This document shows positions 4,601-64,000 of a stretch of DNA of 64,000 nucleotides, piece by piece. Each line of letters starts with the position of its first letter. The first letter of the stretch is position 1. Below the pieces are notes generated by a model. It was given only the letters and a program-made list of their open reading frames with translations, searched no databases and had not been told where the DNA came from. The translations under genes and the position numbers were made by a program. Source of the DNA: a virus (taxonomy: Duplodnaviria; Caudoviricetes); the IMG/VR virus record IMGVR_UViG_3300005439_000017, positions 20,020-84,019 of that record. The stretch is one strand, 5' to 3'.

Positions 4601-7600
4601 GAACAACTTTCTTTAATTCTTCATTGTAAGAATGAGCATAATAGAATCCTTTAACCGGATTTAATATAATTCCATAATCTTTAATAGTCGCTTCTCCAGA
4701 TTGAAGTTTAAACAGAGATTCTTCTAATTTCGTATTGTATTTACCAGTAGCTTTAGCTATTTTAATATACCTATCAAGTGTCATATATCCTTGGGCGTCT
4801 GTATAATCAATACCATTGAATGCTGGTTTATCTACCTTCTCAGTTTTTAGAATAGCAACATTGTAAGTTTCTCCTGTAACATCTATATTTAAATCATCTC
4901 CGGGAACATTAATCTCGTTAGATCTCTTGGAAGCATCAGTAACATCTTTGTAAAAAGCTGTATCTCCAATGGTTAGTCTAGATATTTCACCTGTAAAGAT
5001 TAGACTATTTATGTAGAATCTATTCAGAGCCTTAGTTAAGCTACCATTATAAACTCTTTCTATGGCTACAGGATCGATAAACTCTGATTGAATAGCATTA
5101 CTATCATCCTTGGTAATAATACCTAAATCAAGAAGCTTATTTTGAAACTCTTGCGCTTTACCTGTTAAATATTCAGTAGCTGCTGATTTTAATTGTGTTA
5201 TCAAAGCAGGATCAATAGCTCCATTATTAACTATAGAACTAACTAAACCAGGGGCTAATTGCTGTATTGCGGCGCTGTCAGTGGATAATAACTTATAGCC
5301 ATTACCTTTAGTATTCCCCTTCTTAATATAATTCTTAACAGCCAAAGGAGAATCCATGGGAATTTTATTGATATAAAGATCTGCTATCCTTTTTATTTCA
5401 GGAACTATTACCTGATTTACATAAGTATCTACAATATCGTTTTCATTATATCTATAAGAAGATATGGCCCTAATGACAGGATTATCTGAAGGTGTGGGCA
5501 GAACATATACTGCAGTTTCTTTACTACCATTATTTAAAAATAAGTTGATTTTGGTTACCCAAGAATCTTTCTCATTGAAGTCTTTATATTTAGTACCAGA
5601 TTGTCCTTTTATTTGCTCCCTGAGACCATCCACTACAAATAGATCAAATCCCTTCTCTCTGAAGTTTTTATCGTTTATAAGTCTTTTAACAAGTCTTGAA
5701 TCAGAATAATAGGGATCATTGAGATAGGTTTTAAGTATCTCAACGCCAGAACCATTCTTTATTTTGGTTAAGAACTTGGTCATGAAGGTGTTCATGTTAT
5801 AACTATAAACACTCTTATTCTCAACATTCTTAAATGAATCTGTAATAATATCCTTGTTAAAGTTTATAACAAGGTTAGCAAGTCTATCAATAGCTTTATC
5901 TTCAGTTAAGAAAGGATTTTGAAGACTCTTAACGCTACTAACGAGGTTCTCAAGAGTACCTTCAGTACTACCATAAATAAATGTCTTAAACTCATTTATT
6001 CCGGGAATAATGAGATTACCAACAGACACAGACTGTTTATATCTATCAAATACCGATTTAGGAATATTTATACCAATAGCTCTAAGAACATCTATATAAT
6101 TATCTATAATATCGTCTGTAAGAGCTTTGCCTTCCTTGAGAGATGTTTCTAAAGAAGCTTTAAGAACTTTATATTTATTATTCAGTATGGCTAACGCCTC
6201 ATGTCTGATAGCTTGTTTATTATTATCTATGTAGATAAATTTGTCTATAAACTTATTCTTCCATTCTTCTTTTATGAAATTTCTAATATTCTTCCTATTA
6301 GAAGTCATGACTCTGAATTTCTTAGTTTCTCCTAATTCATCTACTTCTGTAGAAAATAGAACAGTTATGAACTTATTATTAGATTTAGAGAAATTAGTAT
6401 AGAATTCAGATTTAAGGTCATCTCCTGATTCATTTAATATATCAATGAGCTGATGAATTTCTGGTCTGAAACTAGTTAGTTCTTGCATCTCATTAATCAT
6501 ATCTGCATAGGTATCTAACCCAGCAAGATTTCTTACAAGGAAGTTATAAGTTTCATGAAAGTTCACTCTTTCATATTCAGCAAACTCGTTTATCTTGAAA
6601 TGATAATTAAGCTGTTGGTTGCCATCTACATCAGTATATAGAGTAGGCTTCTTCTCCATAGCTCTAAGCGAACGAACAAGGCGTTTCATACCAGCAGACA
6701 GTTTATCATATCCACTTATTTCGAAGTATTGATATTGCCACCTTTCTTTGTTATCAATGTCTGGTTCATCAATATCTACCTCGTTCTCAGACTGAATCTT
6801 ATTCTCTATGTACTCTGACCAATCTTGTGCGAGATCTCTTACTCTAATATTATATCCATATACTGATAAGAAACGTTTATGTTTGGTTTTAAGACCTTCA
6901 ATCTTTTCGCCATTAACTTCCATATCTTCAAACATATCTACCAGTTTCTGATTCAATTCTGGTAAGTTGCCTTTAGAATCAGCATGCCTTGCTTGGAAGC
7001 TTTCTATAGCTCTATCATATATAATGTTGAGATTGAGTTTATTGTTTGATAAAAACTCTCCATATTCTATAAATCCTACAGGTAATCCTTTATTAACCTC
7101 ATATTGTTCAACTAATTCCTCAATGGCTTCTATAAACATATCGTCTATAGTTTCTATTGCTTTTCTTTGCAGTTTAATGGTAAATCCTGGAACAAGAGAT
7201 TGCCTTACTAATAATTCGTTGTTTTGCCTATTTATATTGCGTTTAAACAACTTTTCAGATTGACTATATATTCCACTATCAATTCTATAAAAGAATTCGT
7301 CTAATGCAATCTTATTGCTCAATAGAGCTTTAAGTTGCTGATACAATCTTTTGAAGAAGTTAAGAATCTTAGCCCCTAAAGAACTAATAGACTGGTTATT
7401 AATGATATATCTCTTGAAATCTTCGGCAAGTTTTTCTTCAATATAAATATCATTTATTTCAGATTCAGAAAGATCTGGATATAATTCTCCCAGTTTACTA
7501 GCCTCCTCAGCAGTAATTTTGGGGTACTTTCTAGTACCTTGAGTAGTTACAGACTCCCTTTCTTTATTAGAAAGGATAAGATTAAATACTACGTGAAAAG

Positions 7601-10600
7601 CTTCGTGGTAGGTTGTACCTTCAGGGGCATTCCTGTTAATATAAATCATATTATCATAGAATAGCCCCCAAGCAGATTGACCAAATTTAGAGTTAATTGT
7701 TCTAAGATCATCAACAAATTGGACCCTATCTTCTATAAAAGGAAGGTTCTTGGCTACCCAAGCTAATTCGTTAGTACTATTCAGGGGTTCAAACTTCTCA
7801 TCTGTAGCAGACGATCTTCTGAATATTCCAGGTTTCCTAACAACCTTATCAGGAAACTTGTATGGTTCAGGTTTCTTAATATCCCCAAGATCAGGAACTA
7901 CTTTTGGTAATTCATAATGTAAACTTGGCTGAATGAAGGGGTATTGACTATTTAAGTCAGAAGTAACTACGAATTCCTCCGATAGAAAATCATTGTAGTT
8001 GCTATAGCTATTACCAGTAACAGGGTCATTGTATTCATCGAATCCATTTATTTTCGATTTAAGAACGTTTCTTAGCCTATTGGATAAATCATTACGAACA
8101 TAATCGTCATTGAAATTATCGCCAAATCTAAAGGTTTCAGAACCTATTATGATAGACTCTGTTGCCCCATCTATATAGAGAGTATTATCAGATTTATTTC
8201 CCACATAGGTAACCTCATTAATTTTGTCTGATATGTCTTTATAACTCTCAGGAGTAACATTGTTAAGGTTATCTATAATATATTCAACCTCTGCACTAGT
8301 TAGTCTTCTAAGATTAGCCTTAGCAGGTCTTACTTTACCATCTAGACCAATAATAGGAATATAGACTGCCCCATCTTTAAGATTAACGGCTGAAGTTGCA
8401 TTCTGTAACACTTCGTTGTTAGGAATAACAATATTACCTTGAAGACCATACCCCAATGAAAAATCCTTGGTTTTAAGAGTATCCGATAATTTCTCTGTTT
8501 TTTCTTCTTTCTTTAAAGACTTATTCTTATCAACATTGTTAAATAATCCTGGTCCTTTATGAATAATTTTAGATTCTGTTATAGGTTTTTTACCTCTATA
8601 AGTATCAATTACTTCTATCTGATCTGGTTCAAATACAACCATTTCCAAAAATGGTCTATATCCTTTGTCAGATTGCTTATTCCACACTACGGAATCAAAT
8701 CCAATTTCCTCTAACGCTCTTCTGTCATCGCTAGATATTGTAATGGAAGTTTCTAATTTGTACCTAGCCTCATGTAATGGATCTCCCATTATGTAAGGTC
8801 CTTTAGATTTCAAAAATGCATAGTAAAGATCTTTACCCTCTCCTATAGTATTCTTATCAGTAAATCTACCATATTTCTCGGCTTGTCTTATATCTCTTGA
8901 GAAGTATATTCCTTGTTCTCCTGTAAAAGCATCACTCTTTCTATACCCCTCATCTCCAGGCTTTTTGAATTTTTCTATTCCCTCTTTTCCTGCTGTCATA
9001 AATATCATAGGCTCACCATTGATATCCCTCATAATATTTTTATCTTTAACAGACTGATCAATAGCTCTCTCTAGATTTGTTCTATTGAACTTAACTATTT
9101 TCCCATCAGGCGACTGTACATAACCAAGGGTATAAAGATAGATTATAAAATTCTCAAGATTTTGTCTTATAGTAAACGCTGTTTTTAACTTAGCTTTAAG
9201 ATCGGGATTGTCATCAAGATCGAAAGACACTTTGGAATCGAAACCTGCAAGTAATATTTTTTTATCTTTTAATTTAGTAGTTCTATCTTTAAACTTTTCA
9301 CTAAGATAAATGGTTATGCCAAATTTATCATTAGTAGTCCAAGCCAACATGTCTTCAGAGTAATTATATTTAACAGGATCAGCATAATCAACCTTTAAAG
9401 GTCCATATTTATCTGAAAAATCCTGTAAGATAGTATTAGGCTCTCTTAGTTTAGCATATTGAATTTTACCTTGTTCTTTCCCATAGATTTCAACAAGATC
9501 TCTATAAAGAATAGAATCTTGCCCATTAGGGGCTTTAGTTGTAAAGTTGGTAGGAACCTCTACAGACTCTCCCTCATATAAAGCCTTTCTAAATCTAACT
9601 ATATCGTCATTAGCTTCAGCGATTTCCTTAGTATAGATAGCCTTAACAAACCCAATAATTCTATCTCCAGATATTATCTCTATAGCAGCTGTTAGATAAG
9701 GATTATTATTTGAATAGGAAAGAAGTTCATTAGGATCTAGATTATTAGCATTAGCAAATCTTATTATAAATGGATTTACATCCACAGATTTATTAATGTT
9801 AAAACTTACAGAATCCCCAACATTTACGCTATTATTTTCTAAATAAACAGGGTTGGAAAATGCATTATAGGCAACAGCATTAGGACTATTAGAAGTATTT
9901 TCATTAGACAGTTGAGTACTTAAAGCTTCTGATAGATCTGTTGTAGTAGGTATTGAATCTATATCGTTAGGTTCTACTATGGATGATTTAACTGTATTCT
10001 CAGTATTGAAATAATCATCAATAGTCTTTCTAATCTCTGGAAATATTTCTTGCTCTCTGGCATCAGATAAAGAGTCTTTAAGCTCTTCTGGAGTTTCAGA
10101 TCTAAGAGTATATCCTAAGTCTGTAAATATAGGTTCAAAATGAGCTTTGTCCATTTCAAAAGCTTTAAGATCTTTATATCTCTCCCCTAATGATTTATAG
10201 AAATTTCTATCAGGAGTTACCGATTTAAAGTATCTTTTCTCAAATTGCTTTACAGTTTCAACTTTAGTTAATTCGTTCCTTCTTCTATCCATCTCATCAT
10301 TAACTATCTTAGCTAATTCTGGAATATCTTTATAAAGAGTATTTTCAGGAACATCTATAGCTTTAGCTATATTCCCCTGAATAGGAGTTTCAAGAAGTCT
10401 TTGAAGATCTTCAACTGTAGCTTTCGATACAAAATTATCTCTAAGATTATCAGCAACCATGCTGCGCATTTGAGATTTCATATCATCTTTTAAGGCTGTT
10501 GTAATTTCTTCTTGTCCCTTCTTAGTTTCAACTTTCTTAAGTATATCTTTAATAGTTCCTAATTCTGTTTCAAGCTTAATCCTATCAATAAAAGATTGTT

Positions 10601-12374
10601 GAAGATCATTATCAAACGAGGATTGTATAGCAGATTGAACTTGAGCTTTTGTTGCAAAACCTTCTGCTTTAGCTGCGTTATATAAATTACTAAGAGTCTC
10701 TTTGTAAGCCTCTTTCATATTCTCAAATCCTTTAACAGAATTAAGAGCATTAAGCTGGAGTTCTGTTTTCTTAATATTATTAAGAAGAGGGCTGAGATTT
10801 AAAGCCACAGAAGCATTATTAAAGGAAGTATTGATATCGTCATTCAGAGATTTAAGCCTTTTCTCTTTCAATCTCTGTTGAACAAGGTTCTGAAGTTCTG
10901 TTTGTTTTACTTCTTCAGATTTAGTGTTATCGTTATAGATTCTATTAAAAGCATCTTCAACAAATTTGACATCATCCAATCTCGAAGATATCTTAGATCT
11001 AAAATCATCAGGATTAATATTAAGAGCCGAAGTATCTGTGTCTTGAGATTGATTTCTTATCTCATTTTCAAACTGATCTAGTTTCCCTTCTCTAGCTTTG
11101 GTGATAGCTTCCGACATGAAAGTATTATCAGCTATATCGTAGAAAGTTTTCTTATCTCCTACTTCAGCTGCTTGTGCTTGAGCCATATTGTTTCCAAGAA
11201 CTTTATCAAGCTTCGTCCTAATAGGATCTACAAATTCATCAATTCCTTGACTAGCAACAGTGAACACTCCTCCACCTAATCCTCCAAGTAAAGCAGATGT
11301 ATAAAGGTCTGGATCAGAAAGATAGCTAGATATTCTACTACCAGGAGATTTAGATTCAATCAATCCTTTATCTCTTTCAGCATTATAAGCAGATTCTTTT
11401 TGAGCTAGATATTGATATACCTCTTCACCTGCTTCTGTAGGTATTTGTTTTAATAGTTCTGATTTCAGAGTGCTGCCAGCTCTTCTGGCTAGATTAAAAC
11501 TCTTAAACATACTAGCATACTGAAAAGCATCGACACCTAATAATAAAGAGTTAGCATACCAAGTATTTCTACCGGTTTCTCCAGCTATTTCTTTAGCTGT
11601 AGCATCAGCAGATTCAGGATCATATCCTCTTTCTATAAGAGAATTATAAGATTCCTGATACGAGGTTTTAGCAGCTTCATATGATTCTGCTGTATTTTCA
11701 GTAAGTCTGGATAGTACAGCTGCTGTTAATCCTTTAGCTGAATTTACTTTACCTACAGTATTCAATAATCTACCGGCCCCTAAAGCTTTACCTGCTGATC
11801 CTAGTAGTTTTGTACCGGCTGCTGTAGGTATCATCATAGATACTGTTGTAGCCAAATTAGGTAGATTATTAGCCCACCAAGAACTCGATAAAGGATTGAA
11901 TCCTCTATCATCATCTGACATATATACATTAGCTTCAGCAGCATCTTGTGCCTGCATCATGATATCAGAGAACCAGTTATTGAATTCACTCTCAGCTCCT
12001 ATAACAGAATTGTAATGACCTTCAACATCAAGAAGTCTTGCAGAATCTCTAAGTGTTCCTAAAGTTAATTCAAGCACAGAATTATACAATCCCTTACCTA
12101 GATTGGCAAAAGGGTTTTGAGAGTCGGCACGAATAGCCTCATTATCAATACCCTCATAAGGAAGAAATCCATATTCACCATGTGACGGATAAACATTAAA
12201 TTCTGGGGACACTCTTCCAGATCCCGCTAATCCAGTATTAATATCAGATAAGTTTTTAGTACCAGGAATTCCTAAATCTGACAAGGTCTTATAATCAGAA
12301 TTCTGAGCCTTTAGGGACTCAGAAGCCTGTTTGTTGTTTTTATATAATTCCGATAAAGGTATGTATTCTGCCAT
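1629..12374 (-). CDS. Giant virion-packaged multidomain RNA polymerase (crAss-like/phi14:2 gp66 type, two-barrel), ~3,581 aa, with ART-like and zincin domains
   Basis: Catalytic GSDFDIDK (DFDID at 3669-3683), GYRIPTEG, AFVDNAKDP and YTDAQGY motifs, plus zincin TYHEAFH (7593-7607). Start is probably MAEYIPL at 12374, 1 nt after the upstream stop, rather than 12410. Confidence 0.92.
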   Translation of the reverse strand: MAEYIPLSELYKNNKQASESLKAQNSDYKTLSDLGIPGTKNLSDINTGLAGSGRVSPEFNVYPSHGEYGFLPYEGIDNEAIRADSQNPFANLGKGLYNSVLELTLGTLRDSARLLDVEGHYNSVIGAESEFNNWFSDIMMQAQDAAEANVYMSDDDRGFNPLSSSWWANNLPNLATTVSMMIPTAAGTKLLGSAGKALGAGRLLNTVGKVNSAKGLTAAVLSRLTENTAESYEAAKTSYQESYNSLIERGYDPESADATAKEIAGETGRNTWYANSLLLGVDAFQYASMFKSFNLARRAGSTLKSELLKQIPTEAGEEVYQYLAQKESAYNAERDKGLIESKSPGSRISSYLSDPDLYTSALLGGLGGGVFTVASQGIDEFVDPIRTKLDKVLGNNMAQAQAAEVGDKKTFYDIADNTFMSEAITKAREGKLDQFENEIRNQSQDTDTSALNINPDDFRSKISSRLDDVKFVEDAFNRIYNDNTKSEEVKQTELQNLVQQRLKEKRLKSLNDDINTSFNNASVALNLSPLLNNIKKTELQLNALNSVKGFENMKEAYKETLSNLYNAAKAEGFATKAQVQSAIQSSFDNDLQQSFIDRIKLETELGTIKDILKKVETKKGQEEITTALKDDMKSQMRSMVADNLRDNFVSKATVEDLQRLLETPIQGNIAKAIDVPENTLYKDIPELAKIVNDEMDRRRNELTKVETVKQFEKRYFKSVTPDRNFYKSLGERYKDLKAFEMDKAHFEPIFTDLGYTLRSETPEELKDSLSDAREQEIFPEIRKTIDDYFNTENTVKSSIVEPNDIDSIPTTTDLSEALSTQLSNENTSNSPNAVAYNAFSNPVYLENNSVNVGDSVSFNINKSVDVNPFIIRFANANNLDPNELLSYSNNNPYLTAAIEIISGDRIIGFVKAIYTKEIAEANDDIVRFRKALYEGESVEVPTNFTTKAPNGQDSILYRDLVEIYGKEQGKIQYAKLREPNTILQDFSDKYGPLKVDYADPVKYNYSEDMLAWTTNDKFGITIYLSEKFKDRTTKLKDKKILLAGFDSKVSFDLDDNPDLKAKLKTAFTIRQNLENFIIYLYTLGYVQSPDGKIVKFNRTNLERAIDQSVKDKNIMRDINGEPMIFMTAGKEGIEKFKKPGDEGYRKSDAFTGEQGIYFSRDIRQAEKYGRFTDKNTIGEGKDLYYAFLKSKGPYIMGDPLHEARYKLETSITISSDDRRALEEIGFDSVVWNKQSDKGYRPFLEMVVFEPDQIEVIDTYRGKKPITESKIIHKGPGLFNNVDKNKSLKKEEKTEKLSDTLKTKDFSLGYGLQGNIVIPNNEVLQNATSAVNLKDGAVYIPIIGLDGKVRPAKANLRRLTSAEVEYIIDNLNNVTPESYKDISDKINEVTYVGNKSDNTLYIDGATESIIIGSETFRFGDNFNDDYVRNDLSNRLRNVLKSKINGFDEYNDPVTGNSYSNYNDFLSEEFVVTSDLNSQYPFIQPSLHYELPKVVPDLGDIKKPEPYKFPDKVVRKPGIFRRSSATDEKFEPLNSTNELAWVAKNLPFIEDRVQFVDDLRTINSKFGQSAWGLFYDNMIYINRNAPEGTTYHEAFHVVFNLILSNKERESVTTQGTRKYPKITAEEASKLGELYPDLSESEINDIYIEEKLAEDFKRYIINNQSISSLGAKILNFFKRLYQQLKALLSNKIALDEFFYRIDSGIYSQSEKLFKRNINRQNNELLVRQSLVPGFTIKLQRKAIETIDDMFIEAIEELVEQYEVNKGLPVGFIEYGEFLSNNKLNLNIIYDRAIESFQARHADSKGNLPELNQKLVDMFEDMEVNGEKIEGLKTKHKRFLSVYGYNIRVRDLAQDWSEYIENKIQSENEVDIDEPDIDNKERWQYQYFEISGYDKLSAGMKRLVRSLRAMEKKPTLYTDVDGNQQLNYHFKINEFAEYERVNFHETYNFLVRNLAGLDTYADMINEMQELTSFRPEIHQLIDILNESGDDLKSEFYTNFSKSNNKFITVLFSTEVDELGETKKFRVMTSNRKNIRNFIKEEWKNKFIDKFIYIDNNKQAIRHEALAILNNKYKVLKASLETSLKEGKALTDDIIDNYIDVLRAIGINIPKSVFDRYKQSVSVGNLIIPGINEFKTFIYGSTEGTLENLVSSVKSLQNPFLTEDKAIDRLANLVINFNKDIITDSFKNVENKSVYSYNMNTFMTKFLTKIKNGSGVEILKTYLNDPYYSDSRLVKRLINDKNFREKGFDLFVVDGLREQIKGQSGTKYKDFNEKDSWVTKINLFLNNGSKETAVYVLPTPSDNPVIRAISSYRYNENDIVDTYVNQVIVPEIKRIADLYINKIPMDSPLAVKNYIKKGNTKGNGYKLLSTDSAAIQQLAPGLVSSIVNNGAIDPALITQLKSAATEYLTGKAQEFQNKLLDLGIITKDDSNAIQSEFIDPVAIERVYNGSLTKALNRFYINSLIFTGEISRLTIGDTAFYKDVTDASKRSNEINVPGDDLNIDVTGETYNVAILKTEKVDKPAFNGIDYTDAQGYMTLDRYIKIAKATGKYNTKLEESLFKLQSGEATIKDYGIILNPVKGFYYAHSYNEELKKVVPTQIKYSAVPLIPALTKDNPKLDKLRRTMEENGIDEAVFDSAVKAGEINSNNQEDFLNNKDVKYITLSNSYWRWVQNVPEKHIDAHILFGTQIRRLILENVKNDTIYKLKDKELTGREIKDLYQKLIVDNVREDLSATVEEFSDINTLVDMLRDEIDSRNLDDNYEQGLKLITKKDGSQTISLPFNLLTRFEPILTSIFKNGVMSQKTRGIGAVQVSQFGFQDLKYIRNKEGVIEYAECLLPWWTKEVVQPKDIADIDPELLKMVGYRIPTEGKHSMIPLKVVGFLPQESGSMVVLPPEIVSQMGSDFDIDKLYIMLPEFKKQGNDITKIEFNPEAESHTREERDNGILDIIQSILTNPANYNEIVKEGGFAELQKLAGEVRKYKSKAPLIYIDPISQEEFRKRNQAGAGLIGLAANQNTNHALAQESNLYLNNGTITFDGKSETNLSGMYALDLKTLISDNLGQFLAAFVDNAKDPVADDLNINFETFGVAAMIVRAGYSLETASYFISQPILEDYVRFLTIYNEKEAETRIIAKYNIDKLENKVVDLSTETLRRELKDTTNDYQKLVYQTYKQYRKYANSLGLAVSATRADAIRSLPTLAQLNQFLDKVDQSIENKMVSTASVFSEESTYPMVKEFTDVLRVTRDNTARYIPYGNRIFDNFLRQLKDNGDASDTFYYKNISALNNSLISFITTDFDWLKDNTKNLKELLIGEKTLAKRLNKLKGNKDYEDNLFIKLLHTPDYQSNKDVNYITFSGTVGYTKDERNEIIQDFDRLLKDDNTEVASIGKDLVVYSFAVSGVGKSLYSFADFIPTEYLRDIGLIDFQEDIFGKLEQDSLYLQKINRFVEQFIRNNPNSGFVKEVDPKFVIQHKNHYLVVKDGSNVIDTVTYQQEGETFTEKLPKFMVKFDNKLFRLLDKNTFTYEEVGKLVGNEYDINIDNLQSIVVSNNVKVDESKSPVTKQVETLDNTISDTNKDVSDDDIQTLIDHCK

Positions 12375-12375
12375 A

Positions 12376-14355
12376 TTATCTTTTGTTGTGGTGATTATAA
12401 ACTTTCTCAAATGTATTGGGGGTAGCCATATCTGCTTCAGGAATAATTATAATATCACTGTTTTTATTATGTTTGTCTGAAACATTGTATGTACCATCCT
12501 TATTTTGTCTTATATCATAACCATATTTCTTAAACTTCCTCCAATTCTCATTGAAATTCCAAGAAGCAGCATAGTCTTCCTCTGGACTAATCTCTTTATC
12601 TGGACCCATCATTTCGAAATCGTTAGCTCTAGCCCCCTGCCAACTCATAACCTGCGAAGGAGAGACACCAACCTTTATTGGATAAAGCGTTTCTTTTTTT
12701 CCATCTTCATTCACTCTTTCTCTACGATCAGCACCACCAACATTATCTTTTTCAAATCCGGCCTTCTTGAATTCATCTTCATTAACGTATACATTATAAA
12801 GCAGCATAGGTTCTTCTCCTCCGTGTACAGTAGGAACTAAAGCTGTTTGACCAGTAAACTCTTTCTTATAGTTCGTAACATCTCCACCATTAAGTGCTTG
12901 TCCTATAGGTAGCATGTTGAACTTCTCACCAAAAACCACAGCATTTGAATTATTTAATGCATTTACTCCCTGCTTGGAAGCATAATTAGCCAATGCAGGA
13001 TTTGCTGCAGCTACTTTAGTGCCTACTAATATCTTCTGAGCAACATCTCTATTATCTTGCAAATAGTCATAAAGTATATCTCCATATGGATTATCGGGGT
13101 TAGCTCCTTTATCTTCAATCCATTCGTTATAGCTCATTGGCCTTCCTGTTTTCTTTTGTGGATTTTTTGATCCAAACCCACCAGCCATTCCAGGTAGCTG
13201 TTGCCAAGGAGAATCTAAATATTTTTGATATTCCCCCCGAGACCTCTCATATAGATCTCCTCTTTCCCTTTTACCCAAATCTTTATAAGAAGTTGTTGTA
13301 ACAGGTCTACTAGGCATTTCAATAGCTGGACCAGGACTGTATTCTTGCCCAGCAGCTGTTGGATTATAAGATTCTGTCATAGTCTGAGACAATACCGATA
13401 ACTGTGATTTACCATTTAATAACTTTAACCAGCTAGCCGGGACATCTTCATAACCTGCCATAGTATTTGAAATAAATGGTATTCTGCTCCTCAGTAGTTC
13501 TTTCGCTTTATCTCTACCATATGCAGATGCAACTTCTTCTGGAGTATACGGTTGTTGAGTATTGGGGTTAATTGAATTAGCAAATCCAGCGTAATTGGCT
13601 CTAGGATTATTCATGAAATCCATACCAGATCTCCTGAAATATTGATCTCCAGCAGATTCGCTCATAAAACTCGGAAGTATTTCATCTAGTATTTTATCAA
13701 CTTCTTTTGAATTAGGATCTAGAAATTGCCCCTTACCTGTCTGTATTTTAGGAATATAGCCCATTGTACCATCAAGCTTTCTAACAGGGATATTAACAAC
13801 CTTCCAACCAAGATCCCTCATCTTGGCTTGAATATGAGGATGAATTGCCTTATCGGCCTCTCCTATATAGTCCTGAGTCAATTCAAATCCAGGTCTAGTA
13901 TCTTGATAGTTCTGCCAAGAGATCTTCCCGCTAGCATCAAGAAAAGGCTTATCAAACACATCTCTATTATATTCCCATACCTTACCTTGAGCAGCTAGCT
14001 GGTCTCTCATCTTCCTATGCTCCTGTTCCAGACCATATAGATCAGTTAATCCCTTTATTTCAGGACTAGCAGCAGTTCTCCTAGCAAGTCTCCTTATTTC
14101 ATTCTCCATCCCCGGAGTATATTTAGGATACTTTGTCATAAGAGCATTGCTTTCATTAAAGAATTTATTGATTATAGCATTCTTTCCAGCAACGTCAACA
14201 GTTCTAGTAGGTAAAGCAGCCAATCTATCTTCTATAGCCTCTAAAGAAGATCTATTCCTCTGGTATTCTTGTTCCTGTGATCTTGCTGCAGCATCATAAT
14301 ACTGAAAAGGAATAGGTATATAATTGGAGGGAGTATAATTGTCATACAAATTCAT
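12376..14355 (-). CDS. Virion cargo/ejection protein (crAss-like RNAP cassette)
   Basis: 659 aa directly upstream of the vRNAP gene. Its N-terminus (NYIPIPFQYYDAAARSQEQ) resembles crAss-like cargo proteins. Confidence 0.65.
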   Translation of the reverse strand: MNLYDNYTPSNYIPIPFQYYDAAARSQEQEYQRNRSSLEAIEDRLAALPTRTVDVAGKNAIINKFFNESNALMTKYPKYTPGMENEIRRLARRTAASPEIKGLTDLYGLEQEHRKMRDQLAAQGKVWEYNRDVFDKPFLDASGKISWQNYQDTRPGFELTQDYIGEADKAIHPHIQAKMRDLGWKVVNIPVRKLDGTMGYIPKIQTGKGQFLDPNSKEVDKILDEILPSFMSESAGDQYFRRSGMDFMNNPRANYAGFANSINPNTQQPYTPEEVASAYGRDKAKELLRSRIPFISNTMAGYEDVPASWLKLLNGKSQLSVLSQTMTESYNPTAAGQEYSPGPAIEMPSRPVTTTSYKDLGKRERGDLYERSRGEYQKYLDSPWQQLPGMAGGFGSKNPQKKTGRPMSYNEWIEDKGANPDNPYGDILYDYLQDNRDVAQKILVGTKVAAANPALANYASKQGVNALNNSNAVVFGEKFNMLPIGQALNGGDVTNYKKEFTGQTALVPTVHGGEEPMLLYNVYVNEDEFKKAGFEKDNVGGADRRERVNEDGKKETLYPIKVGVSPSQVMSWQGARANDFEMMGPDKEISPEEDYAASWNFNENWRKFKKYGYDIRQNKDGTYNVSDKHNKNSDIIIIPEADMATPNTFEKVYNHHNKR

Positions 14356-17200: not shown

Positions 17201-20200
17201 ATGTTTCTGCTAACAGTAAACTTAATATACCTTCAGTTTGATTATCATAAGTTAATCTGGCTGTTGTATATTTATCACTAAACCTTTCCTTTTCAAAGAA
17301 TGGCTTATTTAAGTCTATAGAAGCTGTTATATTATAGTCAACATCCAAGATTGGAATATTGTAATCATTTCTAATGTTCCTGAATTGATTTATGTTCCAC
17401 TTGTTATTAACGAGTCTTGCTGTCGACAAGTTTATTATGTTTGTACTTCCAGATACTTGATATGAATTATACAAATAAAACTTATCGAATGTTCTGGTTA
17501 TTATTTCATTATTAGTAAAATCCTTAAACTTACTAGCATACGATATTGAACTAAATTGTTTAGATATATCTGGGTTATTGTTGTAAACTATATCCACTTC
17601 AAAAGGATATTTAGTAAAGTAAAATCTACCAACATTAGTAAGGGAATTATGCCTGAATATTTGAGTGGCTGTATACGAATAAAAATTCATATTATCAAAA
17701 CTATAAATACCTGGCTTATAATCATATATACTTCCCCAACATTTTAATTCAGGATAGTAACTGGTAGTAACAGATCTATCTATAAAATAAGTAGAATTAG
17801 TTAATAACATAATATCAAATGCTGCTCCATTATACCTATAAAAGCTCCCTTGTGCTTCACTAAAAACGACATCACCAACGTTATATATATTACCATCAAT
17901 AAACTTGCCCCTGAAGTTATTTAAATAGGTTTGCCTCATTTCGTAGTCCTTCTTAGTAAGAATATATCTTCTATACTTTTCATCCCAAGCTGCAGTATGA
18001 CCAACAGCATTAGGATTAGCAGGATTATCATAAAGAGGATAGAAATAGTCTTCATCTCTCATCTGATCTACTAGTTTAAGTTTTCCGTTATTTAGGAACC
18101 ATTTAATTCTACCATTAGAAGATATTTCATCAATTCCTTCATTAACGAGATATACTTTACCTTTACTAGAATCTGGATAGATTAAACCAAAAGGAGTTCC
18201 TAAGCTGGCCCATTGGCTTCTTGTTCCTCCATACCCTATATCAGAATAAACAATGTCTTTAACAGGTATAGCAAATATATCTCCAGAACCTAAGAAAGCG
18301 TTAGTATCCTCTGTTTTAAGTACTTCTCTTGCAACAGTTCTGGTTATGGAATTAGTAAGCTGAATGTAAAGATTATCATTACTTCTTTGAAGATTTTCTA
18401 TTTGGCCTCTATTCTTTTGTAAGTCTACATAATTAAGAGGTAAATACTGCCTAAAGTTATCTTGAACTCCTTCCAAATTATCTTTATCAGATCTGATTAT
18501 TCTTGTTGGAAACCTATAAGCAGCATTAGCTAATTCTTTACTTTGAATAACTGGCTGATAAGTATCATTAACTCTAGAATAGTCCTGATTATATAATATC
18601 ACATTACTAAAGAACGGGCTAATATTTAACACTCCTGTTCCGAGATCAGGATCTGTTAATCCATCGATAGTATTCAAAGGATATGCAGGATAATATATTT
18701 CATATGGTTGTACTCCTAAATATCTAAAGTTAATATTCACTGTAGATTGAGATACAAAGAAATGAGCTGTTCTATGAGATAAACTTGTTATAAGCGTTTG
18801 ATCTACTGGTTCTATAGGAGCAATGTTAGATGTTGATCGTAAGCAACAATTACCTACAAATACATCTCCACCAAATAATAGTATTCCATTTACTGCGTTT
18901 ATATCCTCCATAAGTCCAGTAAATGCTAATTCTTGTGCGTCAAATGAATTATATATATTTATCGTGTAAGAACAAGCTAACATCAATGGTGTTTGTGTAG
19001 GCCATACTAGCCCATAGGTAGATGGAGGATTAGATACATCATAGGTAGGACCGTTTATTACAGCAGCCATATCTGTATAGAATTCTACGAATACTGAATT
19101 ATCTACTTGATAATTGTAAATGTTCTTAGTAGTATTATAATAAACAAAATTAGTTTCAAATGGTTTATTAACAGTATTCTGTGTATAGAATATAGATCTA
19201 ACCCTTCTCATGGTATTTGAGTTAGCAGAAGAAGGGTTGTAGTTATTCAATGCTGGATTAGCATAATCTGCTATAAATCCAAACTTAAAATCTCCACTAT
19301 CAGGATACCAATTAAATGATGGGCTTATAGGTCCACCCAAAGCTGTGTGAGCTTTGAAGTGTGTTATTGTTTTTATATCTATATTTAATCCTTGAAATTC
19401 AGGCGAATAGCATCTCCAAGCTCTTTGTCCTATTTGTGATAAGAATGTAGGACCATCCTCTTTTGGATCACTAGAGGGTACAGATACTGATTTTCTTATA
19501 TTATAGGTTCCACTATTATTTAGATAGGTAATAAGATTACCTGTGGTCATAACAGCTTGAGGAATAGTTAAAGGATTAGATAATACTGTCGCATTACTTA
19601 AATCTCTTTTGGCATAATATATTTTGTAAGCTTGTATATTATTCTTTACTATAGGAGGTAATTGGAGCCCTCCTATCTGAATACCAAGGATAGTAGTATT
19701 AACTGTATCACTACCGTTTAAGAAATTTCCTCCTGTTGTAGTTGAGGTAACAGGCATAGGAAATTTATGGTGTCTTACTTTCTTATTTCTCAGGGTAGGG
19801 TATGTAACAGGATCTTGTGCTGTCAAATTAACAGGATTACCATTTATGTCAGCTCCCCAAATATCCCAATTAGAATTGTCAGAGTATAACTCGTTTTGAT
19901 TCTCCCAATACCCCATATTACTAGTAGCTAATGGATTATTGCTTGTGTCAAACAATTGAAATATTCTAGCATTACCATTAACCTGCTTAATATCATCAAA
20001 GCTTACAGTATCTATATTTAATGCAGCTTTAACAGCATTCTCTTGCCCAGGATCTAGATTAGACAGTAATGTGTCTTCAGGTATAGAAGATGGTATAGTA
20101 CCTTTATAAGCATCCCTGACAGTTCTTCCAGGAATGTGATATGCTTTGGTTTCTCTACCATTAGTCAATATAAAAGAGATATAGAATGCGTAAACTTCAT

Positions 20201-54076: not shown

Positions 54077-54541
54077 ATGACAACAATAAAACTTGATAAT
54101 GGTGTTACCATTACTCTAACAGAACAGCAATTAGCTGATATCAACAGACAACAAAATAAAATTACCTCAATTGATCAAATTAATAGCATTTCTGATGCCG
54201 AAGAGATTCTAAAAAATACTAATCACACTCGTTACTATGAAAGTCAATTTGTAAGAAAAAAAGACTGGATCTCATACCAAGTGGAAACAATCATCAAAGC
54301 TGTCAATTACATTGACAATGGCTTTAAGATCTGGACTCCTGATTTCTCAAACAGAAACATAGAGAAGTTCATTGCTTGGATGGAATACAAAGAAGGTTCT
54401 GGTTGGGGGTTCGACTGTTCGTCTTGCCGTTGCTACAATTCTTACGCTTGGGTTGGTGTTTATTTCAAAAATAAGTCTTCTGTAGAAAAAACTATTAACA
54501 AATACCTAAGCCTATACAGTAAGTATTTAGAAGGTAAATAA
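54077..54541 (+). CDS. Small early protein, putative DGR target (paralog 1)
   Basis: PDFSN..EKF..W...VR...YFK....KY..LY..YL family pattern, with an A-depleted patch at 54401-54463. Confidence 0.7.
   Translation: MTTIKLDNGVTITLTEQQLADINRQQNKITSIDQINSISDAEEILKNTNHTRYYESQFVRKKDWISYQVETIIKAVNYIDNGFKIWTPDFSNRNIEKFIAWMEYKEGSGWGFDCSSCRCYNSYAWVGVYFKNKSSVEKTINKYLSLYSKYLEGK
54401..54463 (+). repeat. Putative DGR variable region VR1
   Basis: 50/63 nt identical to 58231-58293. Only 6 A in 63 nt, and 12 of 13 differences fall at codon positions 1-2. Confidence 0.7.
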
Positions 54542-54557
54542 TTGGCAGTCTGAGCCG

Positions 54558-54765
54558 AACTAATGAATTAAAATACTATATTAGTTGTACACAGTTGTTG
54601 TACATCAATTCTACTCAGAAATAGGTAGCCGATAAGTAGAGACTCGGTATTCATTAGTTTTAAATATTTAAATCGTTAGTATCTATAAAAATAACCAAGA
54701 ATAAAAGAGATCATTGAGAGTTAATAGCAAGCGATATCCTTAGCTATTTTCTCTCTTTATCTCTT
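54558..54765 (+). ncRNA. Two structured elements (multibranch ~100 nt and bulged hairpin ~60 nt)
   Basis: AACTAATGAAT/ATTCATTAGTT 11-bp closing helix. Second element: AAGAGA/TCTCTT, GAGAG/CTCTC and AATAGC/GCTATT. Confidence 0.45.
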
Positions 54766-54806
54766 CTTAATAACAAAAATTATAGCGGCTATAATAGCTT
54801 CAATAA

Positions 54807-55019
54807 ATGGAAACAATACAAAATTTTAATCTAATACAAATAATAAGTTCAGTCCTATTTATACTATTTTCTGTATTTCATATATTTGTATATCCAACTA
54901 CAAAATTAGCAAAATACATAATAGCTAAGAAAGTTGAAATACTTACAATATATGATATTAACATTGTAATAATGGTAGGATCTATTATTGCTTTTGCAAT
55001 CGCAACAATTTATAAATGA
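54807..55019 (+). CDS. Small two-TM membrane protein
   Basis: 70 aa, hydrophobic. Confidence 0.55.
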   Translation: METIQNFNLIQIISSVLFILFSVFHIFVYPTTKLAKYIIAKKVEILTIYDINIVIMVGSIIAFAIATIYK

Positions 55020-55098
55020 CAATAGTTTTAATATCATTGTTTATAACAGTCCTAGGACTGTTTATAGCAATTAACTATCACGATAAACACAACTAAAT

Positions 55099-55638
55099 AT
55101 GAAACATTTTATAACAATTCTCCTACTAATCATAGGATTAACAAACACCAAAGCTCAAAACTGCGAAGTATATCTTGCAGGATTTACAGAAGATGGTAAA
55201 TATACTATCAGTAATCCTTCTGGAATCTGTGGAATAGTGCAAAGTGCTGCCATTAATCAGTTTCCAGGCAAATCAGTGAGTATCAACTATATGAGTTTTC
55301 AATTACAAGGAGACTCAAGTTGGGCAAAATTTCATGGTACAATAGAAAATAGCAATATTACAGTCTATACAAAAGTAGAAATTACACCATTTGGTATTAA
55401 ATTACCAGATGTAGGTGAAACCATATCATTGTATGGATTATACTATTGTGTAAGTACCTTATGTTGTGAACAAAGTTGCCAAATAACAGGATATCAAGAT
55501 CCTATGTGTTTATGTTGGAAAGTAAAACTAACAGAAGAATGCAGAGGAGGACCATTTTGCAATTCGGGTTGGTTCGGAATGTCATACACACAATTTCATT
55601 ATGAAGTTGGTGTAGTAACTGGACAATGTCAACAATAA
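55099..55638 (+). CDS. Secreted Cys-rich protein
   Basis: Sec signal peptide ending TKA-Q (Bacteroidota-type Gln at +1) and many Cys in the C-terminal half. Confidence 0.65.
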   Translation: MKHFITILLLIIGLTNTKAQNCEVYLAGFTEDGKYTISNPSGICGIVQSAAINQFPGKSVSINYMSFQLQGDSSWAKFHGTIENSNITVYTKVEITPFGIKLPDVGETISLYGLYYCVSTLCCEQSCQITGYQDPMCLCWKVKLTEECRGGPFCNSGWFGMSYTQFHYEVGVVTGQCQQ

Positions 55639-55645
55639 AATATAT

Positions 55646-56039
55646 GGGCCCGCATGGAATTGACAGGTAGGTTCAGCATTGTAACTAACAGCGATAGAAT
55701 GGTATTATACTATCTAAAAAATGTATACCAAAAGAAAACGACAACAACAAAACAATTTCTGCCGAGTCTAGGAACTTCGCAGAACAAGTTGAATCGAAAA
55801 TTGTAGCACTGTTTCCTTCTGTTAAAGAAGAATTAGCAGTAGCCGCATAATGCATGAGATAAGAGGAGATAACTAGCCCTCAATTGTATCAAATGAATTA
55901 TTGAGCTAGGCAATTTTAATAGTTTGTTTATTCTACAAAAATAAACTGGTGGAGAGAGTCTTCCAGACTCCCTAAATAAGCTGTTTTAATTAGTTACATA
56001 GCACTATTCTGGACGTGGGTTCGACACCCACCGGGTCCA
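55646..56039 (+). ncRNA. ssrA: tmRNA
   Basis: Acceptor GGGCCCG/CGGGTCC-A with G3-U wobble, 5' GGAATTGACAG, T-arm GTGGG-TTCGACA-CCCAC, and an internal tag frame ending LAVAA-stop (55848-55850). Confidence 0.93.
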
Positions 56040-56069
56040 CAATAAAATCTTTCATAAATAAATTAAAAC

Positions 56070-56315
56070 ATGAAAAGAACACGTAAACACAATGTGGATG
56101 AAGTGATTCGCAAATTATCAAGGAAAAAAGATTGCAAACTTTATCCTTGGAAATCTGAGATCGAAATCCTTGATGGGACAAAGACTCCCAAACAAAATGA
56201 CTTAGGAAATGGTTCCTGGGGAATGCTTGATTATCTGACCAAATACGAAGGTTGGGTAATTATAACAGTTTCTAAATTTACAGTAATCAAAAAGAAAAAG
56301 AACAATGGAAACTAA
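56070..56315 (+). CDS. Hypothetical protein
   Basis: 81 aa containing NDLGNGSWGMLDYL. Confidence 0.6.
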   Translation: MKRTRKHNVDEVIRKLSRKKDCKLYPWKSEIEILDGTKTPKQNDLGNGSWGMLDYLTKYEGWVIITVSKFTVIKKKKNNGN

Positions 56316-56580
56316 AGATCTCGGATATTTCCCTACTAACGAAGAGGGAATAATCATCAAAAATATAGCTAAAGGCTATGCAGCATCAATTATGACTGCT
56401 GAAAGATACAAAAAAGCACCTGAAGAGAAAGCTGAACTTGCAACAGCCAAGAACAAATATAAAGCTGCTGTAAGAAGCAAAAGTCCAGCACTAAAAGAGT
56501 CACAGAGTGTTCTGATTCAGGCTATTCTTAGTGCCAAAACTCCAAATTGGGGTAGCTTAACATTTAAGCCCCTTTCATAA
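56305..56580 (+). CDS. Hypothetical basic protein
   Basis: 91-aa coupled ORF. Confidence 0.6.
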   Translation: METKDLGYFPTNEEGIIIKNIAKGYAASIMTAERYKKAPEEKAELATAKNKYKAAVRSKSPALKESQSVLIQAILSAKTPNWGSLTFKPLS

Positions 56581-56618
56581 GAAACCAAATCTTCCGAGGT
56601 CTATAAAAAGGAGGAATG

Positions 56619-57080
56619 TACTTCAAGATAGGATACTAGCATGTTTAATATGTAATATAGAGCAATTAACAAAAAAAATGTCTCTATATAAACAAAAGAG
56701 AAGATAGTATTACGTATGATTGCAGTGGTGAGCAAGTCCTATCAAATATATCATACCAGAAAAATGGTAGAGAGTATGAATCTAACTTGAGTATTAATAT
56801 TAATCAATTGTAACACTTATATAAGTTACAGCGAGAGTTAGAGGAGGCAACATATACGACAAAGAATGTATATGTCTTAACAATAGTAATATTGTTATAG
56901 TAGTTATTGTATATAGAAAATACGTTGCAACTGAAAAATGTTGCACTAGGTTAAATGTACCAAACCAGCTATATAGTAACATTGTGCAACTAGCGTGATT
57001 AGCTAGTAATGTCCCAGACAGAGTTTAGTTTATAACTATCTCTAAATAGTTTCTACTAATCAGTCTTCTATAAAAAGACA
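56619..57080 (+). ncRNA. Candidate large (~460 nt) structured ncRNA
   Basis: No credible ORF. At least 9 helices, including GATAGGA/TCCTATC, ATATAGAG/CTCTATAT, TCATAC/GTATGA, TGTAAC/GTTACA, AACAATA-GTAA-TATTGTT and GTTGCAC/GTGCAAC. Confidence 0.5.
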
Positions 57081-57099
57081 GATTTTAAATAATTCTAAA

Positions 57100-57414
57100 A
57101 TGAATCAAATATTATCTCCAACAAAAATAGATAATTCTATTCAATCTTTCTATGAATATAAAGGATATACTGTGAGACTTAGATTTATAAAAGGATTAAG
57201 ATTAAGTGGAAATGCTAGTTATTCTATCATAAAGTATATTGATAATATCAATAGTCCTAATGGTAAAAAGGCTTTATATTTAAAACAGGAAAATTGGACA
57301 TATTGTCTACCAGAGAAATTATTAGAAAGAGCTAAAAACTACATAGATAATCATGAAGATAATCTAATTAAGAAATTCAAGATAAAAGCTGATAAGAGTT
57401 CAGCTCCGAGTTAG
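57100..57414 (+). CDS. Hypothetical protein
   Basis: 104-aa ORF with an A-rich leader. Confidence 0.6.
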   Translation: MNQILSPTKIDNSIQSFYEYKGYTVRLRFIKGLRLSGNASYSIIKYIDNINSPNGKKALYLKQENWTYCLPEKLLERAKNYIDNHEDNLIKKFKIKADKSSAPS

Positions 57415-57640
57415 TCCACTAACTCTAGAGGTTTGATCATTTGCCGGCAAGATCAGATCAGTGGAATACAATAGAGAGAAACTTGTTCAACTATTGTAAA
57501 TTAGCGCTTATAAGTAATTGCAAGTACTGTAAGCAGAACAAGAGTGGTGTACATCACTAAGTATTTAAATTAAGATTCTCCATGTAAAAAGCAACTTGGA
57601 GAACAAAAAAGGTAGAGAGTGTACATATCTATCTTTCTTA
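57415..57640 (+). ncRNA. Chain of hairpins, candidate ncRNA
   Basis: TCCACT/AGTGGA, TTTGATC/GATCAGA, TACAATAG/CTATTGTA, AGTGGT/ATCACT, TTCTCCA/TGGAGAA and AAAGGTAGA/TCTATCTTT. Confidence 0.4.
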
Positions 57641-57668
57641 TTCATTTGGAAAACTAATACAAATTTAT

Positions 57669-58007
57669 ATGGAAATAAAGAAGCAACTAGAAATATATAA
57701 AATAGCTTTAAAGGATTATAGAAAAGGATTAATATCAATCTATAGAGTAAAAAAATTCTTATATAATCTTTTTAATATAAAAGAAGAAATTAATCCTTTT
57801 TATATCAATAGTTATGAACTAACACGGTATGGGTTTTGCCATTATTTTAATAATAAAACAATAACCTATATATGTACATTATCCATATTAAATTCATTAA
57901 GACCGGATCATGAGTTAGCATATTGGTTTCCTGTAGGAGATAAAAAATCTAGAATTAAATTACTTAAAAAAGCAATAAAAATCTGTGAACAAAAATTAAA
58001 TCAATAA
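57669..58007 (+). CDS. Hypothetical protein
   Basis: 112 aa ending YWFPVGDKKSRIKLLKKAI. Confidence 0.6.
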   Translation: MEIKKQLEIYKIALKDYRKGLISIYRVKKFLYNLFNIKEEINPFYINSYELTRYGFCHYFNNKTITYICTLSILNSLRPDHELAYWFPVGDKKSRIKLLKKAIKICEQKLNQ

Positions 58008-58008
58008 T

Positions 58009-58374
58009 ATGGAAAAACAAATAACTCATTTTACCGACATCAAATCTTATGAAGATGCGTGTCAGGTATTAAAGAAAAAGCCTAGCAAAAAAGCTAAAAT
58101 CTACGAAAGATTAAGAACTATTTGCAAAGCAATAAATTCATTAATCAATAATGAAAACAATGCTAAATTTCCCGATTATAAGAATACGATTCAAAGGAAA
58201 TGGTTTCCTTACTTTACATGTAGTGAAGATAGTTGGGTGTTCTTCTTTTCGTCTTGCGGCTACTGCCGTTGTGACGCTTGGGTTGGTGTTTATAAAACAC
58301 AAGAAGCATCAGACTATGCAGGAAGGACATTTTTTAAGGAATATGTAGAATTTATCGAAGATCAAAGTAACTAA
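58009..58374 (+). CDS. Small early protein, putative DGR target (paralog 2)
   Basis: IKSYEDACQVL...PDYKN...KWFPYF...VR...YKTQEASDYAGRTFFKEY. Confidence 0.7.
   Translation: MEKQITHFTDIKSYEDACQVLKKKPSKKAKIYERLRTICKAINSLINNENNAKFPDYKNTIQRKWFPYFTCSEDSWVFFFSSCGYCRCDAWVGVYKTQEASDYAGRTFFKEYVEFIEDQSN
58231..58293 (+). repeat. Putative DGR variable region VR2
   Basis: Ungapped match to VR1, 4 A in 63 nt, and an identical 3' 18-mer GCTTGGGTTGGTGTTTAT. Confidence 0.7.
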
Positions 58375-58902: not shown

Positions 58903-58976
58903 GGGCCCATAGCTCATTCGGTTAGAGCATCTGACTCATAATCAGGGGGTGCTTGGTTCGATCCCAAGTGGGCCCA
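58903..58976 (+). tRNA. tRNA-Ile2 (CAT, lysidine) or elongator tRNA-Met
   Basis: GGGCCCA/TGGGCCC-A, TCTGA-CTCATAA-TCAGG and CTTGG-TTCGATC-CCAAG. Confidence 0.9.
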
Positions 58977-58990
58977 CAAATAAATTTAAA

Positions 58991-59255: not shown

Positions 59256-59328
59256 GCACTATTAACTCAGCGAATAGAGTAATGGTTTTCTAAACCATAA
59301 GTCCTAGGTTTGAATCCTAGATAGTGCA
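59256..59328 (+). tRNA. trnR: tRNA-Arg (TCT)
   Basis: GCACTAT/ATAGTGC-A, ATGGT-TTTCTAA-ACCAT and CTAGG-TTTGAAT-CCTAG. Confidence 0.88.
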
Positions 59329-59342
59329 CAAATTAAAAAAAT

Positions 59343-62906: not shown

Positions 62907-63404
62907 ATGAAGACATTAAAAATAGATGAAAATAAAGCTAAGGAACTTTATCCAATAGCTTCTAAAGAATTTAAGATTGTGTTGGAGACAACATTTGGAG
63001 TAGATTTCTTTAAAAAAAGATCTCCTCTTGATATTGACTCTCTAGTAAAGCTAGTAGACTATACGTTAGAAACGTATCATATTAATATATATGATCTTAT
63101 ATTAGATGAGGTAGATACAAAAAACGAAGATTTTAGAAGAGCAAATGCCACAATTATTCTTAAGTATTTAGCAAAAGCTTATAATGAAGAAACAGTATTA
63201 AATTGGAGAAATACTAATGAATACAAATATTTTCCATATTTACATTTCGTTAGTGGTTCTTGCTCGGTTCTCTTCGACGGTTGGTGTTTCTGTCTGCATT
63301 GTCCGGTTGGTTTTTACTATAAGAACGAAAAATTAGCAAGGCAAGCATATAACAATTTTAAAATTTACTTTGAAGATTTTTGGGGAGCTAAAGCTGACCA
63401 ATAA
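62907..63404 (+). CDS. Small early protein, putative DGR target (paralog 3)
   Basis: LKYLAKAYNE...NWRNTNEYKYFPYL...VR...YKNEKLARQAYNNFKIYFEDF. Confidence 0.65.
   Translation: MKTLKIDENKAKELYPIASKEFKIVLETTFGVDFFKKRSPLDIDSLVKLVDYTLETYHINIYDLILDEVDTKNEDFRRANATIILKYLAKAYNEETVLNWRNTNEYKYFPYLHFVSGSCSVLFDGWCFCLHCPVGFYYKNEKLARQAYNNFKIYFEDFWGAKADQ
63255..63317 (+). repeat. Putative DGR variable region VR3 (divergent template)
   Basis: 3 A in 63 nt, mostly NNY codons, ends GGTTGGTTTTTAC. It does not align cleanly with VR1/VR2. Confidence 0.55.
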
Positions 63405-63994: not shown

Positions 63995-64000
63995 TATAAC

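Follow-up and report, generated by a model that had tools for sequence, protein, structure and literature searches.

The stretch of DNA analysed here, called the window below, comprises 64,000 nucleotides (positions 20,020 to 84,019) of the 84,019-base virus genome in IMG/VR record IMGVR_UViG_3300005439_000017, and our subject is a pair of short, similar patches in two of its small genes that have the features of variable regions (VRs) of a diversity-generating retroelement (DGR). Gene A (54077-54541, plus strand) is an open reading frame (ORF) of 154 amino acids (aa) and belongs to a phrog_11581-like family of DGR target proteins. Gene B (58009-58374, plus strand) is an ORF of 121 aa, a shorter paralog that lacks the N-terminal hairpin. 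The two genes lie 3.8 kb apart on the same strand. The patch in gene A, VR-A (54401-54463, plus strand), covers codons 109-129, with the block possibly starting one codon earlier, and the one in gene B, VR-B (58231-58293, plus strand), has the same scaffold. Both are in frame 0 of their ORFs, and they align without gaps with 50 of 63 bases identical. The 13 differences fall at codon positions 1, 2, 1, 2, 2, 1, 3, 2, 2, 1, 2, 2 and 1, that is, 12 of 13 at positions 1-2, and adenine makes up 6 of the 63 bases in VR-A and 4 of the 63 in VR-B. The initial annotation of this DNA had given the identity, the share of differences at positions 1-2 and the A counts, and all of them could be reproduced. 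Its invariant 3' 18-mer (54446-54463) was likewise recovered, with exactly two occurrences in the window and in the whole genome; with up to three mismatches allowed, the expected number of matches is 0.06. The pair as a whole has a blastn E value of 8e-12 against the whole genome.

The codons of the two patches are unusual. All 11 residues that are identical between them share their codon (P ~3e-4 under this genome's codon usage), and the third base is kept in 9 of the 10 residues that differ (P ~4e-3, with the same codon usage). The patches employ codons that are rare in the genome, e.g. CGT, TCG, TGC, TAC and GAC, and none of their fourfold-degenerate codons ends in A (0/10 in VR-A and 0/9 in VR-B). 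Both are A-poor and located near the 3' end of their ORF, with NNY-like codons and A-free third positions. Judged by these counts, the nucleotide identity of the patches exceeds what protein conservation gives. The 15-mers flanking VR-A and VR-B are identical at just 0-10 of 15 positions, and there is no nucleotide similarity outside the patch. This part of the initial annotation stands. The two proteins, however, align with 28% identity over 133 aa (E = 4e-7), which is nearly their full length, so that A and B are old paralogs with one anomalously similar patch, and not unrelated genes.

A third paralog, gene C (62907-63404, plus strand, 165 aa), is the ortholog, with 41% identity, of a gene at 17883-18386 of L003, an 80-kb crAss-like contig (JBMFGG010000645.1). 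Its VR-like patch (VR-C, 63258-63320, plus strand) has an A fraction of 0.06 and no fourfold codon ending in A (0/9), and its scaffold differs from that of A and B. No second copy of this patch was found in the genome by an A-tolerant scan or by blastn.

Searched against 1.84 billion proteins, a profile of the three paralogs retrieves 1,391 representative clusters at E <= 1e-3. The members are mostly 120-190 aa long, with some tandem fusions of ~300 aa. Genes B and C match phrog_11581, a PHROG without known function, with E values of 5e-7 and 5e-4, respectively, while for gene A itself no match reaching phrog_11581 was found. With a hidden Markov model (HMM) of the family the E values are 5e-54 for A, 1e-36 for B and 2e-25 for C; the underlying alignment (A2) contains A, B and C themselves. 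Independent support for the membership of A comes from its 50% identity to P0152, a protein of a related contig discussed below, and from BFVD fold matches to uncharacterised crAss-like proteins. The homology to the phrog_11581 family extends over the whole protein. Pfam has no domain in A, B or their neighbours, nor in canonical family members, and no member is named. A word-indexed homolog search with gene B returned the self-match only, and a related-locus search with gene A found none. Megablast and tblastn searches against named phages, with the window region and the protein P0038 as queries, gave no match, whereas a family protein from another locus (L017, see below) did match LoVEphage.

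In the family alignments, the patch is the most variable segment and is nearly devoid of K, E, Q and M. We have counted the fourfold-degenerate codons in nine family genes from five genomes, and of those in the homologous 22-codon patch 1 of 97 ends in A, compared to 111 of 276 outside the patch in these genes (Fisher P = 1e-16). Selection at the protein level cannot lead to such an avoidance of synonymous A, which is what one expects of a DGR template and the sequences copied from it. We also considered whether the Cys residues might form a Zn knuckle and rejected this, as the Cys positions are not conserved across the family.

The AlphaFold2 (AF2) model of the gene A protein has a mean confidence (pLDDT, predicted local distance difference test) of 94. 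An N-terminal hairpin is followed by three helices, then by a long hairpin (residues 97-118) and, at the C-terminus, by two more helices; the VR makes up the second strand of the long hairpin and the next loop. A C-type-lectin-like fold, which had been suggested from the sequence, was not found: this model, of one protein, resembles no solved C-type lectin. The AF2 model of a member of the L017 (lectin-tip) type is unreliable in its VR, and the family may be either a reduced lectin or another kind of scaffold.

We now turn to the relatives, in which templates were searched for with an A-tolerant ungapped scan and then with blastn, the IMG/VR loci having been fetched with the protein P0176. We begin with L037, the contig with the closest homolog, which encodes P0152. 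It has an A-like gene (3513-3977) that lacks a template of its own and, 6.3 kb further downstream, a C-like paralog (9669-10142), after which come a template repeat (TR, 10169-10239), a spacer element and a reverse transcriptase (RT) with the motif GNYLSQ (10350 to the contig end). Both L037 VRs match this single template, with 17 of 18 and 20 of 21 mismatches at template adenines. When the two VRs are compared, 17 of 71 sites differ; every one of these is at a template adenine, and 16 are at codon positions 1-2. The VRs contain 9 and 6 adenines. The L037 pair gives the same picture as the A/B pair of the window. Placed in a common codon register, the A/B identity block and the VR/TR blocks of L037, L001 and L003 all occupy codons 3-23, and each of the 10 variable A/B codons has an A-bearing codon as its counterpart in the template of one relative or more. 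The block is homologous, in register, to VRs with proven templates.

In other related contigs, too, a second, A-rich copy of the patch is found just downstream of the family gene. L003 has two family genes, each with its own template; these templates are clean and carry spacer elements (10462-10537 and 18416-18491). In the ungapped scan, pair 1 has 50 identical positions and 15 mismatches at a template A, and pair 2 has 48 and 17, so that 65 of 66 positions are compatible in each; by blastn, 16 of the 18 mismatches of pair 1 are at template adenines. The VR/TR pair of L001 is 79 bases long, and the L001 and L003 templates begin 7-18 bases past the stop codon. The blastn mismatches at template adenines are 15/16 and 11/12 in L006, 12/12 and 14/14 in L008, 19/20 and 17/17 in L009, 14/14 and 17/17 in L011, 8/8 in L012 and 11/11 in L020. 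The conserved Trp codon of the VR (codon 4 of the register) is TAG in the L001, L003 and L037 templates, which means that every functional VR must have had that adenine changed to G, a selection step built into the design.

Some of these loci have peculiarities of their own. The second L003 template is followed by a lipoprotein gene at the place where L037 carries the RT. In L005 (10487-10540 and 10618-10700), the template past the family gene matches the VR in its 5' half only, followed by unrelated sequence and a tRNA-Leu (TAA); it looks truncated. The VR/TR pair of L012 is short (10335-10376 and 10523-10564) and belongs to a provirus rated 98% complete, with no RVT_1 match anywhere in the record. 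L016 has two family-gene copies 1.45 kb apart (10195-10525 and 11650-11980) that are 100% identical over 331 bases including the VR, representing either a very recent duplication or an assembly artefact.

An RT of the RVT_1 type is present in 11 of 17 viral records with the family, usually directly downstream, and the family-linked RTs have the GxxxSQ and YxDD motifs. Past the templates there is a conserved spacer element, consisting of a hairpin, an A-run and then TTGGTA...GAAGAAGA. Neither the template nor the spacer region corresponds to any Rfam family. Five viral records that carry the family, of which one is 100% complete, lack the accessory gene Avd (PF05635); the window's own genome was not searched for Avd. 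In the complete 58-kb genome behind L011, the cassette lies amid exonuclease, helicase, NinG, methyltransferase and replication-initiator genes, and not among structural genes.

A different type of VR was found at L017, L018, L021 and L023, where the family-gene patch is 107-112 bases long and the template lies beside the RT. The mismatches at template adenines are 11/12, 13/13, 15/18 and 10/11, respectively. In the L017 record (G011) the RT is ~36 kb from the family gene, and at the RT locus itself (L031) the proximal target is a tail protein (phrog_5302), the same tip segment being carried by the family member. The L017 family protein matches phrog_11581 with E = 9.5e-44. It is also related to QVQ57199.1 of LoVEphage, a Bacteroides phage (MW660583.1), with 37% identity and E = 4e-19 (1e-25 in another LoVEphage record, OY725593.1). 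This LoVEphage protein is annotated as hypothetical, and the neighbours of its gene encode RtcB, a radical SAM protein and methyltransferases. About 14 kb from it, next to a frameshifted RT, there is a template for its 113-base patch, and all 19 mismatches between the two (19/19) are at template adenines. The RVT_1 match of that RT (MW660583.1 48183-48768, minus strand; L043/L044) is in two pieces in different frames, and a frameshifted RT has likewise been reported for Quimbyvirus. A second, non-structural target of the Quimbyvirus DGR has been described (Benler et al. 2021, PMC8008677). Since the LoVEphage target matches it, the use of the family as a DGR target is partly known already, and the matching gene neighbourhood suggests that Quimbyvirus ORF 80/84 belongs to the family.

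On the evidence of these alignments, the family patch is a variable region in the relatives, and the A/B pair of the window has the same anatomy and the same boundaries. The DGR signature that the initial annotation saw in the patches is in this way borne out, the homologous patch of the relatives having an A-rich template, adenine-site mismatches and a GxxxSQ RT. We consider it probable (roughly 0.8) that VR-A and VR-B are DGR-written variable regions of two paralogs that had one template. Under this interpretation, A, B and C would be small non-structural phage proteins in which a beta-hairpin-and-loop segment of ~22 codons serves as the VR. The template repeat would be transcribed together with the downstream spacer element, the GxxxSQ RT would copy it while misreading adenines, and the resulting complementary DNA would replace the VR. 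If VR-A and VR-B come from one template, the non-adenine positions would be identical and the differences would occur only at template-adenine codons. Writing from a common template would also account for the use of rare codons in the patches, for their depletion in A and for the conservation of third bases. The template in question, now unseen, is likely to have been a single one that wrote both. The wider proposal of the initial annotation, that one template diversifies several unlinked small non-structural genes, finds its counterpart in L037 and LoVEphage; for the genome of the window as assembled it finds no support.

Two explanations without any DGR were also considered. One is a short gene-conversion tract between the paralogs, followed by diversifying selection on a binding loop at codon positions 1-2. 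Paralogs 3.8 kb apart on one strand could recombine, and with only 13 differences, an even spread would put 12 of them at positions 1-2 with P ~0.04. However, gene conversion leaves unexplained the avoidance of synonymous A and the rare codons, which are common to the family in other genomes. The ends of the block are moreover those of the VR/TR pairs in the relatives, the variable codons are the template-adenine codons, and genuine DGRs of this family with two targets show the same pattern, so we regard this explanation as very unlikely. The other is that a Cys/Tyr/Ser/Phe-rich, perhaps metal-binding, motif is conserved in the ordinary manner between the paralogs, the signature being the product of T-N-Y codons and a register-shifted alignment. 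BLASTP indeed prefers a gapped alignment that matches up the C-x2-C-R-C motif, and the patch is compositionally biased. Against this, the Cys residues keep no fixed position in the family, so many identical codons and third bases are improbable under the codon usage of the genome, and the homologous patches in relatives have templates; we give this possibility almost no weight.

It is important to point out that none of the three components of a complete DGR cassette, i.e. RT, template and spacer element, is present in the 84-kb contig. The initial annotation had proposed to look for a template and a DGR-type RT in the genome, and neither was found. A PF00078 search of the 84-kb record that read through stop codons gave no match at E <= 10, and a custom HMM from nine family-linked RTs finds nothing in the genome either. 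No third copy of the patch was detected in the genome by a consensus scan, the A-tolerant scan or blastn. The place that the TR and spacer element occupy in L001 and L003 is empty here: the 265-base intergenic slot after gene A (54542-54806) contains no match to VR-A (A-tolerant scan and blastn) and no spacer element (nhmmer). An nhmmer profile of the element from nine relatives finds both L003 elements and nothing in the window's genome. After gene B there is no room for a template, since the next ORF starts at 58378, 4 bases past the stop. Directly downstream of gene C there are small ORFs, and no template or RT.

These results can be understood in two ways. The one we lean towards is that the patches in this phage are orphaned, the template and RT having been lost and the patches frozen soon after the last writing. 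There is a precedent for such a loss in the family, as L010, which is 99% complete, has neither RT nor template while its close relative L011 has both, and loss of the DGR cassette has precedent in crAss-like phages (PMC11054128, PMC12386605). The other is that the DGR is active, with the template, spacer element and RT either located in the unassembled gap that separates window position 64000 from the DNA polymerase gene or provided by a co-infecting relative, and that A and B are still being rewritten. Several observations weigh against an orphaned state or against the DGR interpretation as such, the first of which is that with no template or RT for this genome the defining partner of the VRs is missing and adenine specificity cannot be read directly. 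All 50 common positions of VR-A and VR-B are still identical, which argues for very recent writing and fits an active cassette as well as a recent loss. Furthermore, the IMG/VR contig and one Logan contig end at the same base (window 64000) and a JGI contig ends 71 bases later; with three contigs stopping within 71 bases of each other, ~0.6 kb past gene C, something unassembled must lie there. In L037 it is directly after the C-like paralog that the RT and template are found, serving the remote A-like gene as well. The CheckV completeness of the record is only 67%. Finally, L003, with two clean templates, shows no RT in the 50 kb examined (positions 3,579-53,315 of the 80-kb contig), so that in this lineage an RT may be far away or divergent.

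The extent of the gap can be judged from synteny, since the window's genome is roughly collinear with the L003 contig. The start of our contig encodes the last ~70 codons of a DNA polymerase gene, which in L003 (a 653-aa protein) follows the region of the gene C ortholog. By comparison with L003 and L034, the unassembled stretch is estimated to be ~2-4 kb, that is, short and mostly DNA polymerase, and the small ORFs that follow gene C occupy the place where a template and RT would have been expected from L037. The assembly breaks repeatedly within or before the polymerase gene, and the CheckV value is probably an understatement. As to ongoing variation, which the initial annotation had proposed to look for within the patches, none was seen: a contig of JGI 3300025916 (Ga0207663_10000879) and two Logan contigs (SRR5456976) are 100% identical to the window through VR-A, VR-B and VR-C. 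This is a comparison of contigs, which probably derive from a single sample. Of these, the one from JGI and the unitig-like ones from Logan run unbroken through VR-A and VR-C. With degenerate patterns, no copy of the A/B scaffold was found in viral, metagenome and genome collections, which may be without near-identical records. Taken with these points, a DGR that is still active seems to us rather unlikely, and the orphaned state the more likely description of this phage.

The products of genes A, B and C, ~120-165 aa long, are encoded on the strand opposite to the structural module, amid small ORFs, tRNAs and a transfer-messenger RNA (tmRNA). This gene context suggests a role as intracellular binders in phage-host conflict, and the labels 'early', 'cytoplasmic' and 'anti-defence binder' given to the genes from the sequence are likewise suggestions. 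The tmRNA (Rfam RF00023, 63 bits) is at 55646-56042 of the window (plus strand), between genes A and B; L003 has a tmRNA at the syntenic position (18850-19248), just past its second template. Just past the neighbour of gene B there are a tRNA-Met (CAT) at 58903-58977 and a tRNA-Arg (TCT) at 59256-59329, both on the plus strand. The window also contains an ORF of 3,593 aa (1629-12410, minus strand).

It is instructive to compare the system with known DGRs. Multi-target DGRs with remote VRs occur in Treponema denticola (the TvpA system) and in Legionella. As in the window family, one template, with the RT acting in trans, serves several dispersed paralogous targets; there, however, the targets are cellular surface lipoproteins with lectin folds, while those of the window family are phage-encoded and without signal peptides. 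The DGR of Bordetella phage BPP-1 (brt, TR, avd, mtd) has in common with the window family the adenine-specific copying from TR to VR, the location of the VR near the 3' end of the target and an NNY-type codon design that avoids stop codons. The BPP-1 system has a single target, a tail fibre of C-type lectin fold, together with Avd and a GC-rich IMH (initiation of mutagenic homing) sequence, whereas in the window family the VR ends are not GC-rich, ~25 residues forming two helices follow the VR, and the targets are non-structural. LoVEphage, and probably Quimbyvirus too, uses the same protein family as the window genes, with one template serving a tail protein and a non-structural protein. In LoVEphage, however, the VR is long and of the lectin-tip type common with the tail protein, and the cassette is complete, whereas the window VRs are 63 bases long with another scaffold. 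The window belongs to a crAss-like phage with two VRs on one scaffold and a third on another, and with no template or RT in the contig. Remote DGR targets have been noted before (PMC8144416), and crAss-like phages with VRs and a lost or broken RT and template have been described, their past versus present activity being questioned (PMC11054128, PMC7290462, PMC12386605). The targets of those published incomplete cassettes belong to the structural module, being tail-fibre or receptor-binding proteins that carry C-type lectin domains, unlike the small proteins considered here.

DGRs are held to act on receptor-binding or surface proteins that have a C-type lectin fold, and all annotated VRs were found in that fold (Roux et al. 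2021, PMC8144416). The comparison made here shows a large family of small, non-structural phage proteins to be a regular DGR target, whose members are encoded beside the RT, 6-36 kb from it, or beside a template of their own. One may go further, tentatively and at somewhat less than even odds, and propose that phrog_11581 is a widespread (at least 1,391 clusters at 50% identity), uncharacterised scaffold for DGR hypervariation, unlike the C-type lectin fold, in non-structural and probably intracellular phage proteins. Its hairpin would then be a modular slot for whatever VR the resident DGR writes, namely its own 63-71-base type with gene-specific templates in crAss-like phages and the tail-fibre lectin tip in Quimby- and LoVE-like phages. 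In that case a phage could diversify an intracellular binder, for instance one directed at defence proteins of the host, either together with its receptor-binding tip or independently of it.

It is also worth pointing out that the two-copy VR signature could be read correctly from the raw sequence, yet the cassette that would have written it is absent from the assembly, a state known in crAss-like phages. If the conclusions reached here about the family are correct, phages would direct programmed hypermutation to intracellular targets much more frequently than had appeared from the one case of Quimbyvirus, and candidate evolvable binders for anti-defence or takeover could be drawn directly from the family.

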